Of a DNA stretch of 64,000 nucleotides, positions 8,704 through 60,897 are shown piece after piece (within the stretch, counting starts at the first letter, position 1; each line of letters begins with the position of its first letter). The translations under genes and the position numbers were made by a program. The notes below the pieces were generated by a model. The model was not told the DNA's origin and made no database searches. It worked only from the letters and a program-made list of their open reading frames with translations. Source of the stretch: Candidatus Poribacteria bacterium (GTDB taxonomy: Bacteria > Poribacteria > WGA-4E > PCPOR2b); NCBI GenBank assembly GCA_965208675.1, contig OZ242351.1:352001-416000 (forward strand). The letters run 5' to 3'.

Positions 8704-9378
8704 ATGGTGGGAGATGTGATGATGCGATTTCGACATTTGTTTTGGTTGAGTCTTTGTGTTGTTGGACTGACTCCCCTTGGCTGCGGTGATAGCTCGGTTT
8801 TAGATATTAGAGAAAATGAAACTCAAGAAACAACTATCCCGCGCGAAAGCGTTTCAATCATGGGAAGGGTATTGCCAGTCGGAATAATGCCGTTAATTAT
8901 TGTGCAGAGAAATGGGATAGACTTCAAGAACACTGTCGCCGACGATGAGGGAAATTTTACTATTCCAAACCTTCCGGTCGGAGAGTACAGTGTTCGCGTG
9001 ATTGCGACCGGCTTCTTTACAGATATATCAATAAACCATTTGCAACTGAAGGCAGGGGAAACGCACGTCGCAGAGCCCGTAACCCTGATTCCGAGATCAG
9101 AGGCGGCGACGTTGCTTGGGCAGGTGGTTGACAAAGCGGACAACACCACTATATCCGACGCCGAGGTTCATGTTGAGTGTTCAACGGGAGTGTGCGCGCT
9201 TTTGAGCGCAACGTCGGATCAGAATGGAAAATTCTCAATAAAAATTTGGTCTGGCTTAAGCTCAATTTTCAATGTGCAGAAACTAGGATATCATATATCG
9301 TCTTTCCAAGTGGAAGCCTTAAAACCCAACGAGAAACGCGATTTAGGCAGAATTGAAATGGAGCGCATAGAACCGTGA
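8704..9378 (+). CDS. lipoprotein with carboxypeptidase regulatory-like domains
   Basis: PLGC lipobox-like; two D-x-x-G-x-F-x-I modules. Confidence 0.7.
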   Translation: MVGDVMMRFRHLFWLSLCVVGLTPLGCGDSSVLDIRENETQETTIPRESVSIMGRVLPVGIMPLIIVQRNGIDFKNTVADDEGNFTIPNLPVGEYSVRVIATGFFTDISINHLQLKAGETHVAEPVTLIPRSEAATLLGQVVDKADNTTISDAEVHVECSTGVCALLSATSDQNGKFSIKIWSGLSSIFNVQKLGYHISSFQVEALKPNEKRDLGRIEMERIEP

Positions 9379-9554
9379 GGTCATTTTAAATCCAACAAAA
9401 AGTTTGCTCGCAGTTAGTGTTTCAAAAATCTGTTGTGTCTAGTTATCCAAAATTCGTTGAGTTCATTTTCGAGGTACAACCAGGCACAAATATTCTGCTG
9501 CTCATAAAGCAACGCGCTTATTTTCTGACCATATCATGTTTAGTCCGTCGCGCG

Positions 9555-9908
9555 CTACTTTCTCCGCCAAATAATGCGGCCTCGAGTCAAATCGTACGGC
9601 GAAAGTTCAACACTAACCTTATCACCCGGTAGAATTCTGATGTAGTTTTTCCTCAACTTTCCAGCGATGTGAGCCAAGATCAAGTGCTTATTGTCCAACT
9701 CGACACGGAACATAGCATTCGGCAGCGTTTCCAAGACGGTACCTTCCACCTGAATTGCATTGTCCTTCGCTTTCACGTCTGACCTAACTGGATCATCAGA
9801 TACGTTGTCGCTCTTGGGCTGCGCATTTCCTTGTTGGTTCTTCCGCTTTTGTTTCTTTTTGAACTGGTATTGTCCAGCACGTCTTTGCGCGGGTTTGCTC
9901 TTTTTCAC
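9555..9908 (-). CDS. infA: translation initiation factor IF-1, possibly N-terminally extended
   Basis: [23 protein letters not shown]...[22 protein letters not shown]; candidate GTG starts at 9908 (AAGGAG) and 9776. Confidence 0.9.
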
Positions 9909-10044
9909 TCGTCTTCGTCTCCTTCTTGGAGGTTGGAAATTAATCAAACACTAATTCGCAAAGCGAAATTGGCACTGTCTGCTGTGCTCAATTGGAGCTC
10001 GCAGGTAGCTGTCTGTACTGCAGCCAATTTCACTCATCTTCTAG

Positions 10045-10848
10045 TCACTCATCTTCTAGACTGAAAATTTTGTTTTTTTCGATTACAAGCTGGCGAAAAC
10101 AGTTAACAGCTTCTTGTAGTTGCGATTCAGCCTCCGCTGCATCAATACCTGTGGAAATGAGATCGACAGGCATGTACTCACTATCAGTACGCCGCAAGGC
10201 AATGTACGCCTTCAGATAAACGCCCGGATGCGTGTTCATCACAACTTGTAACAGTGGCGAAACTTCCGATTCGAACATATTCACATAAACGCGCAATGCC
10301 GCCACTCGCGCGCGATAGCGGTCAGCGATTAGAAGTGCAACGTGGCTGTCAAAGATTGCCTTCATCTCTTCCGGCGGCCCTGGCATCATGAGAATCGTGG
10401 ACTGATCTTTCGTGACGCTGGAGCAAGGTGCCCAACCGACAGGATTCTGAAAGATGTGAGCGGTTTCAGGGACAGTTGCCATTTTTATCATGGCAGGGCT
10501 AACATCGGCACGACTCATCAATTTACGTCTATCCATGAAGCCCGTTAAGGTCGCCTCGTCCACAATCGTCGGTTTTCCGATTATCTTTGCGACAGCCCCG
10601 ACAGTCATGTCATCGGGTGTTGGCCCGAGACCTCCGGTTGTCAAAATAAGGTCGGTTCCTCTGCAAACTGAACTCTCTATTGCATCTATCATCTCATCAA
10701 AATCATCACGAATCATCGTTACTCGGCGTAGTCTACCTCCCAACTCAAGCATTCGTTGTGCCATCCAAAATGCATTTGTATCCTGAATTTGGCCCAAAAT
10801 TAACTCGGTCCCAATCGAAAACAGCTCAATGACAGGTGCCTTTTCCAC
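10045..10848 (-). CDS. CinA-family molybdopterin-binding (MocF-like) protein lacking a PncC domain
   Basis: IGTELILGQIQDTNA, TTGGLGPTPDDMT, PGPPEEM. Confidence 0.8.
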   Translation of the reverse strand: MEKAPVIELFSIGTELILGQIQDTNAFWMAQRMLELGGRLRRVTMIRDDFDEMIDAIESSVCRGTDLILTTGGLGPTPDDMTVGAVAKIIGKPTIVDEATLTGFMDRRKLMSRADVSPAMIKMATVPETAHIFQNPVGWAPCSSVTKDQSTILMMPGPPEEMKAIFDSHVALLIADRYRARVAALRVYVNMFESEVSPLLQVVMNTHPGVYLKAYIALRRTDSEYMPVDLISTGIDAAEAESQLQEAVNCFRQLVIEKNKIFSLEDE

Positions 10849-55027: not shown

Positions 55028-55915
55028 TCATACTCCCCACCGCTTCCGCATCTCCTCCATTGGAACGGTTTCGCCCTGCATCCAAGCATAATGCGCAATT
55101 GGGTCCTCTCCGATCCAGCGTTCGTCAACCGGTTCATCCGCGCGTTGGAAGCGCGTGTCAGCGCTAAGACGGTAACGGTTCGTTGTGTTGTCCAGCGATC
55201 CGTGCATCGTGAACATGCCGAAAATCAACACATCTCCCATCTTAAATGAATTCGTTCCCCACCGCCCGCCGTAACGGTCAACCAATTCGATTGGATCGTT
55301 CGAGAACGAACCGGTCACATTGTCACGATCCACGTCCATCTCGCCGTAAGTCTGTTTAATTAAGTCAAAACGGTGGGAACCGATGAGAATCGCCAACGGT
55401 CCCATCTCAAGCGGCAGGTCGCCGATAGGCGACCAGCAGGTTACGACATGTTGAGTTCCGCGTCCCATGTAAACGATGTCGTAGTGTGCACCGGTGAAGC
55501 CGCTCGGCTGTACCACGCGCAGCCATTTATAATCGTAGGTGATGACGGGTGCATCGAAAAAGTTTTCAAAAAAGCTCAAAACTTCAGGGGATTCGACCAG
55601 GTTCAGAAATTCCGGTTGGTGGGTGACGGCGTTATTGCCGCCCATAAACATGCCGCGCTTGCCTTCCGCCGGAATCCCGTCTGATACCGGGTGCGCACCG
55701 TCGAGTTGCTCGTTCTCGTCCAGTTTCCTGAGCAGAAATCGGCGGGTTGCCTTGACCTTTTCTGGGTCGTACAATCCGCGAATTAACAGGTATCCATCAG
55801 CTTTAAATCTAGCATGCAGCTCCTCGCGGTCGCCGAGTACGTCATTTGCTTCTCGCAACCATCGAAGGTACTTCCCGCCCATTTCCATCTTTATTTTGTT
55901 CATGGTGAGAATCAC
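55028..55915 (-). CDS. phytanoyl-CoA dioxygenase (PhyH) family protein
   Basis: HYD, GSH, MHGS, R-x-S-x-D-x-R motifs. Confidence 0.85.
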   Translation of the reverse strand: MILTMNKIKMEMGGKYLRWLREANDVLGDREELHARFKADGYLLIRGLYDPEKVKATRRFLLRKLDENEQLDGAHPVSDGIPAEGKRGMFMGGNNAVTHQPEFLNLVESPEVLSFFENFFDAPVITYDYKWLRVVQPSGFTGAHYDIVYMGRGTQHVVTCWSPIGDLPLEMGPLAILIGSHRFDLIKQTYGEMDVDRDNVTGSFSNDPIELVDRYGGRWGTNSFKMGDVLIFGMFTMHGSLDNTTNRYRLSADTRFQRADEPVDERWIGEDPIAHYAWMQGETVPMEEMRKRWGV

Positions 55916-56197: not shown

Positions 56198-56604
56198 ATG
56201 GATTTTTCCGCATGGTCCCCGTCGCACACTATCATAGCGATTTTTGCAGCCGTGGGGTTTATAGGACAGATTGCGGTCTTATTCTACCGTACGGGGCTGC
56301 TGGAAAGGCGCATAGAAAAACAGGGCGAAGACTTGCGGCAGCTAGGCGAGACATTCTTGCACGCGTTAGAACGCCATGAAGATCGGGTGGACAAGCGACT
56401 TACTGAAATCATTTCACAAATGAATCAACAGTTCTCAGATGTCCGAACCGAAATTGGCGTCCTCCGATCGGACATAACCAGGAGATTGGGAACCTCCGAT
56501 CGGAAATGAATCATGAAATTGGCAGCGTTCGCGAGGAACTCAGCAAACTCAATCAAAACCACATCGACCATTTGATACGACACCAGGATGAAGAACCGTC
56601 GTAG
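56198..56604 (+). pseudogene. TM-anchored coiled-coil protein with 1-nt frameshift near 56476 (paralog of 60454-60897)
   Basis: Adding one A at GACATAACCAG restores DINQEIGNLRSEMNHEIGSVREELSKLNQNHIDHLIRH, matching the paralog C-terminus; could be an assembly error. Confidence 0.7.
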
Positions 56605-56826: not shown

Positions 56827-59199
56827 ATGTATAATCAGAGGCATCTCGTTATTGTTAACCTGATAATGGTCGTTATGCTAACGAGTTCCTGCGGCATTGG
56901 GCGAGTTTTTGAACCCCTTGTACTCAATTCTTATGAGTCTCGGGTCCAATCGGTCATTGAGCAGGGCACAGTTGTTCAAAATTACATGAAAAGCCTTGAC
57001 CGTGCGCTTCAGGACGGCGATGAAAGCACTATCGCACTATTGGCGCCCGAAGGCATTCGTTCGTTTCCGCCCTGTGAGGAAGAAATAGAACGCCGGCCTG
57101 ATCTCCCGGGTGTTGAAATTATCCGTTGGAAATCAACGCCGGGAAATGGAGGAGTCAATCCTTGGGTAAACCTAGCAGACCACTGGGGAAGCGGATCAAT
57201 AATATCGAAGAGTTCGTTTAACATGATTCACCTCAATATAATCAGCGGCGACACCTGCGAACCTGAAATCCGCATTAGCATACAGGGCATTGATACCGCG
57301 GGAAGACACCGCCAAGATGTCAGTTATATGCGGCTGAAGGTAGATTTCTCCGGGTACGCCGCAGTCATTCGAGACATCCTAAAATTTACTGCCCATTCGC
57401 TTATACGCACCGGCGATACGCTATTTAAGGACGAAACGGAGAAGCGGGGTCTCGTATTTCAGCCGCCCAACGTTCCGTTTCGGGACGACCTAAAATTTGC
57501 GCCCTTTACCGCCACTGGGGGCGGCGTCGCCGTTGCTGATGTCGATGGGGACGGGTGGGAAGATGTATATCTTATCGGCGGCACACCGCACACGAGTAGA
57601 TTTTATAAGAACATTGGCTACGGATACTTTGAGGACGCAACAGCGAGTTCCGGTCTAGCAAACCCCCAGGATATGGCTATGGCTGCTGCCATTGGCGACG
57701 TGGACCGGGACGCTGATTTGGATATTGTCGTCACGCACGGCTTTGCACCGCCTACGCTCTTTCGCAACCGCGGCGATACGGTGTTTATTCGTGAACCGTT
57801 CCCTTCTCGTGAAGGGCAAAAGGAAGAAGGCGCTACGACGCCCTCGTTCGTTGATGTCGATAACGACGGGGACCTCGATTTGTATATTGCATACTACGGA
57901 CTTGTGTCGGATTACGTGCCGGACACGATTTACATTGGACTCAACGGCGTTCAAGACCGCCTCTACATCAATGATGGCACCGGGCAATTCACGGAAGAGG
58001 CGCAAAGCCGGGGGATAAATGATTCACGATGGACTTTCCAAGGCGCATTTGCAGATTTCGACGAGGATGGCGATGCCGATCTTTATCAGATTAACGATTT
58101 TGGACGCAACACGCTCTATCTTAATGACGGGACCGGGCACTTTGAGGACTGCACCCTCGACTGGGCGGGAACCGAAGCCTTTGGGTTTGGTATGAGCGGT
58201 AGTTGGGGCGATATCAATGCGGACGGCAAGCTCGACTTGTACATCGCGGGCATAGCATCGGGCGTACAGTGGTTCGCAGAACAGACCGATGTCATGCGTT
58301 ATTACCTCCTAAATGCGAAGCGGAGCCGTTACTTGCCGTCCGGGCAAATTGAACTTATTACAGCGGAGCTTGAACCCTATATGATTTCAGCGGAGCATCT
58401 GGGCGATTCCTTGCCCGCAATCCGCCAGCGTTACTTCCAAGGAAATGTATTGCTCCGACGCAACGGCAACGGATTTGATAACATTAGCCAACCGTCCGGT
58501 ACAGAATATGGCGAGTGGGCATGGGGTTCAGGGTTTATAGATTTTCAAAACGACGGATTGGTTGACCTTTACACAACCAACGGGTTTATTACGGGCGAAA
58601 AGAAAGACGATCTGTGAATGCCCTTTTTCGAATCGGCGGTGCGCCGACCTCTCGACTATTATGACGGAGCATTTTATTCCGCCGATTTTGTTCGCTCTAA
58701 TTCTTGGAACGGAATGGAAAGCAATTTCGCATATCTAAACGTTGATGGAAGTAAATTCTTTGAGCTAGGCTTTGCCCTTGGGATTGACAGTACTGCTGAC
58801 GGCCGGAGTTTCATCGCCTTTGACTGCGATGGAGATGGCGACCAAGATCTGCTGGTTGCAAATCGGAACGCACCGGCTCAACTATTTATCAATCACTGGG
58901 CGGACGCTGCGAACAATAATTGGTTGAAAGTTCGTCTCAGCGGCGACAACGATAGAACCGCCGTTGGCGCCGTGGTTAAAGTTCAAACCGGCAGTCGGAA
59001 GCAAGCCCAAACGTTCTCCTTGTGCAATAGCTACCTGTCCTGCTATGCCGGTCCGCTCCTATTTGGAATTGGTTCTGCAACTCGTGTTGATGCGGTAGAT
59101 GTAATTTGGCCGGGCGGTGAATCTAGCCGAATCACCGGGATTAACGCTAACCAATTGATTGAGGTGTGTTTTCCGACCACCGCTCGGACGCACAAATAA
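56827..59199 (+). CDS. FG-GAP/CRTAC1-ASPIC/UnbV lipoprotein, 790 aa if TGA 58615-58617 is read as selenocysteine
   Basis: LTSSC lipobox; multiple D-x-D-x-DG-x-x-D repeats on both sides of the TGA; ORFs 56827-58617 and 58618-59199 abut in frame; C-terminal ASPIC/UnbV pattern (WLKVRL, AVGAVVKV, FGIG, V-x-WP-x-G). Confidence 0.75.
58628..58655 (+). promoter_or_regulatory. candidate bacterial SECIS hairpin
   Basis: TCGGCG-GTG-CGCCGA (58633-58647) plus TCGA/TCGA lower stem; GGT at 21-23 nt after the TGA. Confidence 0.6.
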
Positions 59200-59204
59200 C
59201 GCAA

Positions 59205-59708
59205 ATGAGGAATCATCTTGGGAAGTTAAGCCGGCCGTATCTGCCTTTAGTTCTATCGCTCTCGGTTTTGGCGGGATGCACTAAGGTTCCTCAGAAAATC
59301 GCCGTCGGTGAAATGATCGGCGATATTGATGTTGTTCAACTATCAGGTAAAAGAGAAAAACTTTACTCTCTGTCCAAAAACCGAATCACTTTAGTGGTGT
59401 TCTGGGCAACGTGGTGCCAGCGTTGCCGTGAAGAAGTTCCGGACATCAATGATTTAGCGGCTGCTTACGGAACGTCATTAGCCGTCATTGGAATTTCAGC
59501 GGGCGAGACCCTCCACACCGTCAAAGCCCATTCCGCAGCGCTAGGCATTCGCTACCCGGTGGTTGTTACGGAGTTATCCAACTTGGCTGCACTCGGAATT
59601 GATAGTATTCCGCGGTTGGTGGTTTTAGACTCGAAAGGGAGAATTCAGCGGATTGAAAACGGTGTGAATGCGTCTTTACGGGCACGACTAACGCAACTCG
59701 CAAACTAA
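59205..59708 (+). CDS. TlpA/ResA-family thiol-disulfide oxidoreductase lipoprotein
   Basis: LAGC lipobox; FWATWCQRCREEVP; cis-Pro SIP; starts 5 nt after the upstream stop. Confidence 0.88.
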   Translation: MRNHLGKLSRPYLPLVLSLSVLAGCTKVPQKIAVGEMIGDIDVVQLSGKREKLYSLSKNRITLVVFWATWCQRCREEVPDINDLAAAYGTSLAVIGISAGETLHTVKAHSAALGIRYPVVVTELSNLAALGIDSIPRLVVLDSKGRIQRIENGVNASLRARLTQLAN

Positions 59709-60453: not shown

Positions 60454-60897
60454 TTACTCATGACTTCTCAGGTGTTCAATGTGGTTCTGGTTAAGGACGC
60501 TGATTTCGTCTCGCACGCCGCTGATTTCGTCTCGCACGCCGTTGATTTCAGCTCGTACATCGCTGATTTCAGCTCGTACATCACTGATTTCGGATTTGAA
60601 TTCAATTCTTAGTTTGCCAATCTCGCTTCGCACGTCGCTAATTTCAGATCGAATTTCGTTTCGCACGTCGCTAATTTCGGAGCGCATTTCGGTGCGTATC
60701 TGAATCATTTCGGTTCTGACTTCATCAATTCGATTCCCTAGGCGTTCTCCTTGCTGCTGGAAATCGTCGTTTTGCTTGTCCATCCGTTTTTCAAGTTGTG
60801 CCGTGCGGTAGAACAAGACGGCAATCTGGCCTATAAAACCCACGACAACAACAATCATAAGGATTGTATGCGATGGTGACCACGTGCCGAAGTCCAT
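60454..60897 (-). CDS. TM-anchored coiled-coil protein with 7/11-residue tandem repeats
   Basis: AGGAGG RBS; MDFGTWSPSHT; (EISDVRx)n encoded by 21- and 33-nt repeats; C-terminal LNQNHIEHLRSHE. Confidence 0.8.
   Translation of the reverse strand: MDFGTWSPSHTILMIVVVVGFIGQIAVLFYRTAQLEKRMDKQNDDFQQQGERLGNRIDEVRTEMIQIRTEMRSEISDVRNEIRSEISDVRSEIGKLRIEFKSEISDVRAEISDVRAEINGVRDEISGVRDEISVLNQNHIEHLRSHE

Follow-up and report, generated by a model that had tools for sequence, protein, structure and literature searches.

Bacterial genes that depend on SelB and a bacterial selenocysteine insertion sequence (bSECIS) are the closest described systems for the decoding event considered here, and most characterised selenoproteins carry their selenocysteine (Sec) in a UxxC or CxxU motif and within a thioredoxin fold, according to the available part of PMC13188914. 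The DNA analysed, referred to as the window, is a stretch of 64,000 nucleotides (nt) from a Candidatus Poribacteria bacterium (contig OZ242351.1, positions 352,001 to 416,000). Its interval 56827-59199 very probably represents one gene, encoding an exported FG-GAP/ASPIC-UnbV (CRTAC1-like) protein in which UGA597 is decoded as Sec under the direction of a downstream hairpin; judging from sequence comparison, the TGA itself is almost certainly read as Sec. The gene has in common with SelB/bSECIS-dependent genes an in-frame UGA, a GC-rich stem within about 20 nt whose loop starts with G-G-U or G-U, homologues with Cys at the site, and a genomic set of sel genes. In contrast to the usual selenoproteins, it belongs to another fold and family, and the Sec lies outside a UxxC/CxxU motif and outside a thioredoxin fold.

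To our knowledge, neither a Sec nor a catalytic residue has been described for CRTAC1. The window protein shares with CRTAC1 and ASPIC-UnbV proteins (Pfam PF13517, PF01839 and PF07593; PDB 9etn) the order of an FG-GAP propeller followed by a UnbV/ASPIC domain. In the same genome (G000), at least 14 paralogues of the ASPIC/FG-GAP type, each about 600 aa long, have no inserts; unlike these, the subfamily of the window protein contains two helical inserts (about residues 480-540 and 597-625) and an extra N-terminal alpha/beta domain, with the Sec at the start of the second insert. Redoxin-type selenoprotein families resemble the studied family in combining a TlpA/redoxin-type module outside the cytoplasm with selenium, but there the Sec stands in for a Cys of the redoxin motif itself (UGC, UxxC), whereas here the redoxin keeps its CxxC and the Sec is found in the propeller, some 280 residues further upstream, or on another chain. 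TlpA/ResA/CcmG-type periplasmic reductases are membrane-anchored CxxC thioredoxin-fold proteins encoded beside, or fused to, one specific exported client. Compared to these, the client at our locus is a putative selenoprotein, and the partner, which would act in the manner of these reductases, did not reach the NCBIfam cut-off of ResA, DsbE or TlpA (the best being ResA, with 61 bits against 170) and is therefore not a named equivalog of any of them. The features of the locus are as follows.

56827-59199, + strand: whole coding sequence; hydrophobic leader and alpha/beta N-domain, then an FG-GAP beta-propeller into which two helical inserts are set, and the UnbV/ASPIC C-domain
56827-56892, + strand: leader peptide whose last residues, LTSSC (Cys22), may be a lipobox as read by eye; helix at residues 2-21 in the AlphaFold2 (AF2) model
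58615-58617, + strand: UGA as the predicted Sec codon (U597), which follows the invariant Asp595-Leu596 and opens the second helical insert
58628-58655, + strand: SECIS-like element, with stem 58633-58638 / 58642-58647, loop GUG at 58639-58641, and lower stem 58628-58631 / 58652-58655
58960-59160, + strand: UnbV/ASPIC domain, residues 712-778, wholly 3' of the UGA (Pfam PF07593, E 1.2e-13)
59205-59708, + strand: TlpA/ResA-like thioredoxin-fold gene, 167 aa, 5 nt past the stop; lipobox LAGC; WCQRC with Cys71 and Cys74 at 59415-59426

The interrupted frame and its relatives

A single TGA at 58615-58617 splits one frame into two abutting open reading frames (ORFs), 56827-58617 (596 aa) and 58618-59199 (193 aa), as the initial annotation had described. 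When read through, the interval encodes a product of 790 residues with U597 at the TGA, and the frame closes with TAA. The Pfam analysis of this joined protein revealed five FG-GAP_3 stretches and, beyond the stop as annotated, the UnbV_ASPIC domain; FG-GAP_3, FG-GAP and UnbV_ASPIC appeared in the expected order with 129.6, 43.5 and 51.2 bits (gathering cut-offs 26.9, 22.1 and 23.4). A phmmer search matched the protein to a CRTAC1-like protein (E 1.7e-13). The AF2 model, built on a 110-sequence alignment, consisted of one propeller, the N-terminal alpha/beta domain and the two helical inserts, with a predicted local distance difference test score (pLDDT) of 83.6 and a predicted template-modelling score (pTM) of 0.89; U597 opened a helix spanning residues 597-605. 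The best PDB match of this model (Foldseek) was murine CRTAC1 9etn_A (E 5.5e-22, TMt 0.72, 640 aligned columns). In NCBIfam, no family was matched by P0001, P0124 or P0011, and the planctomycete forms described below matched only TPR and redoxin models, all below their cut-offs. The first ATG (56827) is preceded at six bases by GGAAGGA. A hydrophobic N-terminal segment was common to all orthologues when inspected by eye and, together with the lipobox-like motifs of the selenoprotein and its partner, these leaders point to a location in the cell envelope.

Whole-genome searches that read through stops were carried out on 61 relatives and then on 176 genomes of the phylum. The gene was matched in 5 of the 61 relatives, where all six matches contained exactly one TGA, and in 6 of the 176 genomes, where each of the seven orthologues (32-91% identical to the window protein) had one in-frame stop, always a TGA at the same aligned codon. 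Conservation extended across the stop, with identities after versus before the TGA of 89.6 vs 91.7%, 56.0 vs 65.4%, 33.7 vs 35.9% and 34.2 vs 30.6%. Among 120 listed database homologues, 14 stopped exactly at ...DDL (53-94% identical, 564-628 aa), while 11 of 18 short homologues started with MPFF or MSFF, that is, at the codon directly after the TGA; three of these matched an N-terminal half in the length of the longest contig. A profile search against 1.84 billion representatives added, among the matches listed, 12 further clusters (≤50% identity) ending at the site. Two further studies also provided contigs, from runs labelled sponge metagenome, that carry the region 58300-58950 or near relatives of it; no RNA run was listed for this stretch. 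The contig of one study was identical over 58519-58788, across the TGA, and the other study contained a relative about 90% identical for which no change was listed at the TGA. This 90%-identical form shares a CTG-to-CTC change before the TGA with G002.

Regarding the residue occupying the site in full-length homologues, Cys was aligned to U597 in the four nearest (P0008, P0011, P0014 and P0015; ...HDL[C]LDFAR), and Asp or Glu in about 100 remoter homologues of 1100-1290 aa that are fused to TPR and redoxin-like domains; a few relatives had Ser, Ala or Gly. Asp595 was unchanged in the 110 aligned sequences, and besides site 597 the clade of the window protein had no conserved Cys. From an alignment of 55 rows whose site column had been masked, a quick maximum-likelihood tree with the genome's own paralogues as outgroup united the Sec and Cys forms in a single clade (SH-aLRT 98), to which the Asp/Glu forms were sister (support 100); the deep branching order is provisional because long branches meet there, as the program warned. 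The 14 aligned ORFs of the roughly 600-aa G000 paralogues were all gapped at the Sec site and are therefore uninformative on its residue. A scan of genome and metagenome contigs returned mostly generic FG-GAP patterns among the 110 matches listed, with only L033, L043 and L116 (Ser, Ser and Ala at the site) being members of the subfamily.

Another of the 110 listed loci, L040, led to a Phycisphaerae metagenome-assembled genome with Sec forms, namely two members fused to TPR and redoxin domains, in which TGA occupies the site (...DDL[U]SFWWRQVV and ...GDL[U]SFFWRQVV). A search of 401 planctomycete genomes gave at least 69 matches in at least 39 genomes, these counts being lower bounds because at most four candidates were scored per genome. 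Of these 69 matches, 60 contained one TGA, one contained two TGAs, one a TGA and a TAA, and seven no stop. The TGA occupied the Sec site in 31 of 31 distinct planctomycete loci examined, and neither TAA nor TAG was seen at the site in these 31 genes or in the seven of the phylum. In one genome, the locus L188 (G542:C104:12726-14072), a tandem paralogue lying 2.5 kb 3' of a TGA-type copy (8931-10265), reads GAG (Glu) at the site and still bears the full 6-bp hairpin and a CxxC redoxin domain; from its sequence, it looks like a recent replacement of Sec.

The hairpin and the selenocysteine machinery

The hairpin that had been proposed 15 nt past the TGA was found exactly as described, with an upper stem TCGGCG, a loop GTG, the complementary CGCCGA and a TCGA/TCGA extension. 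RNAfold drew both the hairpin and the lower stem. The element has an energy of -10.7 kcal/mol, a UGA-to-loop distance of 21 nt, a 6-bp stem and a 3-nt GUG loop, and these values fall within every range of the published bSECIS model as given in the available part of PMC13188914 (stem of 4-16 bp, loop of 3-9 nt with a G within the first two, 16-37 nt from the UGA, and a minimum free energy, MFE, of ≤ -7.5 kcal/mol).

The stem also showed compensatory changes, both in the window's own clade, where the sample is small (five sequences), and among planctomycete sequences. In G001 and G003, pairing was kept by a double change from G-C to A-U, composed of an Ala-to-Thr replacement and a synonymous Arg change, and a change from U-A to U-G likewise maintains pairing within the clade. 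The two G009 copies carry GCGC-GGUC-GCGC and GUGC-GGUC-GCAC, with the register shifted by one base and a C-G to U-A change between them. All seven phylum copies had GGU at nt 21-23 past the UGA. In the planctomycete sequences, the hairpin occupies nt 12-28 past the UGA and all 168 of 168 cells were paired (28 distinct sequences), with two-sided changes in two of the six pairs (GU 12, AU 10, CG 3, GC 3 in one; AU 21, GC 7 in the other). This stem score was reached by 0 of 500 shuffles, and controls slid along the sequence paired in 13-69% of cells. Furthermore, all six pairs were formed in 29 of 29 distinct TGA forms versus 2 of 7 non-TGA relatives sharing the peptide motif.

Several observations weigh against the decoding of UGA597 as Sec or temper the evidence for it. 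The stability of the hairpin was ordinary, with a 60-nt fold at an MFE of -15.2 kcal/mol (z = -0.71) and 46 of 200 shuffles as stable or more so. Synonymous conservation stood at 0.53 over the hairpin codons, compared with a mean of 0.51 for the gene, and shows no excess, as 224 of 553 windows reached this level. Two non-TGA planctomycete relatives, L188 and L193 (Asp), retained the full hairpin, and the stem therefore stems partly from the codons of the conserved peptide motif. The 14 and 12 shortened database entries are known as protein sequences, in which the stop codon is not visible. In a permissive scan of G000, 1111 TGAs were in frame with open flanks, and some G-loop hairpin followed 187 of them; since a TGA plus a hairpin do not by themselves exceed chance, it is the comparison among relatives that carries the case for Sec. 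Rfam gave no match at E ≤ 10, which says little because no bacterial SECIS family is known to be included in that database.

The window genome G000, a single contig of 4.89 Mb, contains all four components of the Sec system. These include selA (E 3.5e-158) with an adjoining SelB wing domain, a tRNA-Sec gene (selC, anticodon tca), and a selD that itself has an in-frame TGA. The presence of SelA is not discriminating, given that 171 of the 176 phylum genomes have it; SelB was also present in G009 and in the four planctomycete genomes checked (G179, G443, G542 and G380). Other G000 genes combine an in-frame TGA with a following hairpin, for instance a Prx-like gene (UxxC) that matched Pfam AhpC-TSA, and two genes that we take to be fdhA and a MoeB-like gene from the residues around the TGA rather than from a family search. 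The putative fdhA (C1:1611772, minus strand) has a GC-rich stem capped by GGUCU 18 nt past its UGA, the same design as the window element, with a GC-rich stem soon 3' of the UGA and a G-U type loop.

Two additional sets of TGA-containing genes were observed in this genome. Five paralogues (C1:904541, which lies in L152, 2543498, 2540263, 3422969 and 2541828) have an in-frame TGA in ...DESC-U-[AG][NS]GK..., with a GC-rich hairpin about 20 nt downstream and a loop of GGUC, AGGU or AGUU; for one of them, the read-through product (413 aa) had no Pfam match, and they may constitute another uncatalogued selenoprotein family with a CU motif. A geranylgeranyl-reductase-like FAD oxidoreductase gene (C1:1150175, minus strand; L153:121-1419; Pfam GGR_cat, E 6.7e-26) contains an in-frame TGA at ...GAPVR-U-AEGIG..., followed 20 nt downstream by a 7-bp hairpin with a GUC loop.

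The thioredoxin-fold partner and competing explanations

The gene located 5 nt downstream of the selenoprotein gene matched Pfam Thioredoxin_8, AhpC-TSA and Redoxin above their cut-offs, and its WCQRC and LAGC motifs were unchanged in three orthologues. A CxxC gene of this type is situated directly 3' of the selenoprotein gene in G000, G002 and G138, the remaining neighbourhood of G138 being different. In the planctomycete Sec loci, a fused redoxin domain with CxxC was present in 30 of 31 cases, versus 0 of 96 Asp/Glu-type homologues, in which AxxS, VxxS and similar motifs, mostly WAPPS, are found instead. Sequence patterns of this kind suggest that the Sec family works with a thioredoxin-like partner.

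On balance, we favour a relay in which Sec597 is the lone redox-active residue and is regenerated by selenenylsulfide exchange with the CxxC of the TlpA/ResA-like module. Its first step, decoding of UGA 597 as Sec by the SelA/SelB/SelD/tRNA-Sec system of the organism under the direction of the GC-rich hairpin with its G-U apical loop 15 nt downstream, is almost certain from the sequence comparison. Sec597, positioned on a helical insert of the propeller, would then react with a substrate, and exchange with the CxxC of the thioredoxin-fold module would restore it. That module would be a separate lipoprotein encoded 5 nt downstream in G000 and a domain of the same chain in the planctomycete relatives, and the relay would be sited outside the cytoplasm. 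Relatives in which Asp or Glu goes together with a redoxin domain devoid of cysteines would be derived forms without redox chemistry. A broader and more tentative proposal is that this ASPIC/UnbV/CRTAC1-like subfamily is an extracytoplasmic selenoenzyme that has switched repeatedly between an active state (Sec/Cys plus CxxC) and a dead one (Asp/Glu plus AxxS). The cysteines of FSLCNSYLSC, previously suggested as a resolving pair, vary among orthologues (Gly replaces the first in those 91% and 58% identical, and Ala the second in the 58% one) and are therefore unlikely to fill that role, for which the CxxC of the thioredoxin-fold partner would be a better candidate.

Four points speak against the relay. 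The insert bearing U597 was modelled at a pLDDT of only 61-79, no CxxC gene adjoins the G001, G003 or G009 copies, the Glu form L188 retains CxxC, and the Sec/CxxC counts were taken from related genomes and are not independent.

The main rival as to function, which we consider unlikely, is that the Sec is genuine and serves as a ligand of a soft metal (Cu, Zn, Ni, Hg or the like), with Asp or Glu in relatives binding Ca or another hard metal. TlpA is known to keep copper-site proteins reduced for metal loading, and the TlpA-like partner would just keep the ligand reduced for that purpose. The variation of the site among U, C, D and E, an alternation known from the metal ligands of molybdopterin enzymes, would fit such a role, as would the invariance of Asp595 two residues earlier, the description of the FG-GAP family as metal binders, and the absence of a second conserved Cys in the chain. 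Nevertheless, Sec/Cys and both redoxin cysteines are lost together, a pattern that thiol/selenol exchange explains at least equally well, and the relatives with Ser, Ala or Gly at the site indicate that a ligand is not universally required.

It is very unlikely that the TGA is a true stop separating a 596-aa propeller fragment from a 193-aa ASPIC fragment, the latter being made by translational coupling at the TGAATG overlap. An ATG directly follows the TGA in all five sequences of the window's clade, which also makes re-initiation possible and in this respect weighs against decoding as Sec, and public gene callers predict the halves separately. Outside this clade, in contrast, the following codon is CTG in both G009 copies and AGC or AGT in 28 of 28 distinct planctomycete sequences. 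The second ATG (58618) has, as had been noted and as we agreed by eye, no GGAGG-like Shine-Dalgarno sequence upstream, only AAGAAAGA. Moreover, the Cys-, Asp- and Glu-type relatives are single chains, the break falls within a propeller modelled as one domain, and the stop is never TAA or TAG in the 7 + 31 genes, although TGA accounts for only 34% of the stops of long ORFs in G000. Reading of the TGA by a near-cognate tRNA (Trp or Cys) or under a variant genetic code appears still less probable: the conserved downstream frame does require read-through of some sort, but TGA serves as an ordinary stop in that same 34% of long ORFs, the genome has a complete Sec system, the aligned residue in homologues is Cys and not Trp or Gly, and a SECIS-type hairpin co-occurs with the TGA forms. 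Finally, a pseudogene or assembly error, for which nothing but the stop itself speaks, can practically be dismissed, as the same TGA occurs in six phylum genomes, the contigs of the two further studies show no change there, and both halves are conserved in protein down to 31-36% identity.

Other neighbours were considered as partners and rejected. A PhyH-like dioxygenase belongs to a family with dozens of members in the genome (over 20 tblastn matches in G000, one copy lying at 55028-55915 on the minus strand of the window), and it is placed differently from genome to genome. A gene for a desaturase-like membrane protein lies next to the selenoprotein gene in G138 and G001 and was not found in G000. 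The selenoprotein/TlpA pair is also flanked by paralogous small proteins on opposite strands, at 56198-56509 (+) and 60454-60897 (-), which have coiled-coil tails and a membrane segment at the N-terminus (MDF..WSPSHTI...) in common; the protein at 60454-60897 has a tandem SEISDVR-type repeat and is the only one of the two present in G002. Regarding the distribution of the pair, G138 (L143 and L148), which belongs to another family of the phylum, has a copy that matches the window gene at 76% identity across the final 311 residues, whereas the copies of the same-genus genomes G001 and G003 (L027 and L028) are 56-57% identical over that region and 58-59% over their full length. Because the G138 copy is closer than the same-genus copies and its genome shares only the selenoprotein and TlpA pair, the pattern suggests transfer of the two-gene module, or an old paralogy.

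Implications for the selenoproteome and the ASPIC/UnbV superfamily

The 2026 table of 119 prokaryotic selenoprotein families (Table 1 of PMC13188914) has no FG-GAP, ASPIC, VCBS or CRTAC1 entry. The same names are unmentioned in the available main texts describing deep-Sep, BSepDB and a planctomycete genome study (PMC12013277, PMC13326102 and PMC4807772), whose supplementary tables could list the family, and a literature search combining selenoproteins or selenocysteine with FG-GAP, ASPIC, UnbV, VCBS, CRTAC1 or beta-propeller gave nothing relevant. With the window gene as its first example, this would be a widespread family of selenoproteins absent from the current catalogues examined.

Such a family adds to the prokaryotic selenoproteome beyond the pattern of thioredoxin folds and UxxC motifs. 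It is not rare, as judged by the matches in at least 39 of the 401 sampled planctomycete genomes and the 12 database clusters listed. The Sec form is common in Planctomycetota, often with several copies per genome, and also occurs in the sponge-associated phylum. Since these genes appear as separate halves in public gene calls, both their abundance and their domain layout are recorded wrongly. A superfamily without a known function in bacteria thereby gains, at the Sec site, a probable active residue; if this is true, it would be the first entry point to catalysis in the large ASPIC/UnbV/CRTAC1-like superfamily. The association of Sec with CxxC would offer a concrete reaction scheme together with a natural partner protein, and the Asp/Glu relatives with a cysteine-less redoxin domain would serve as natural inactive controls.

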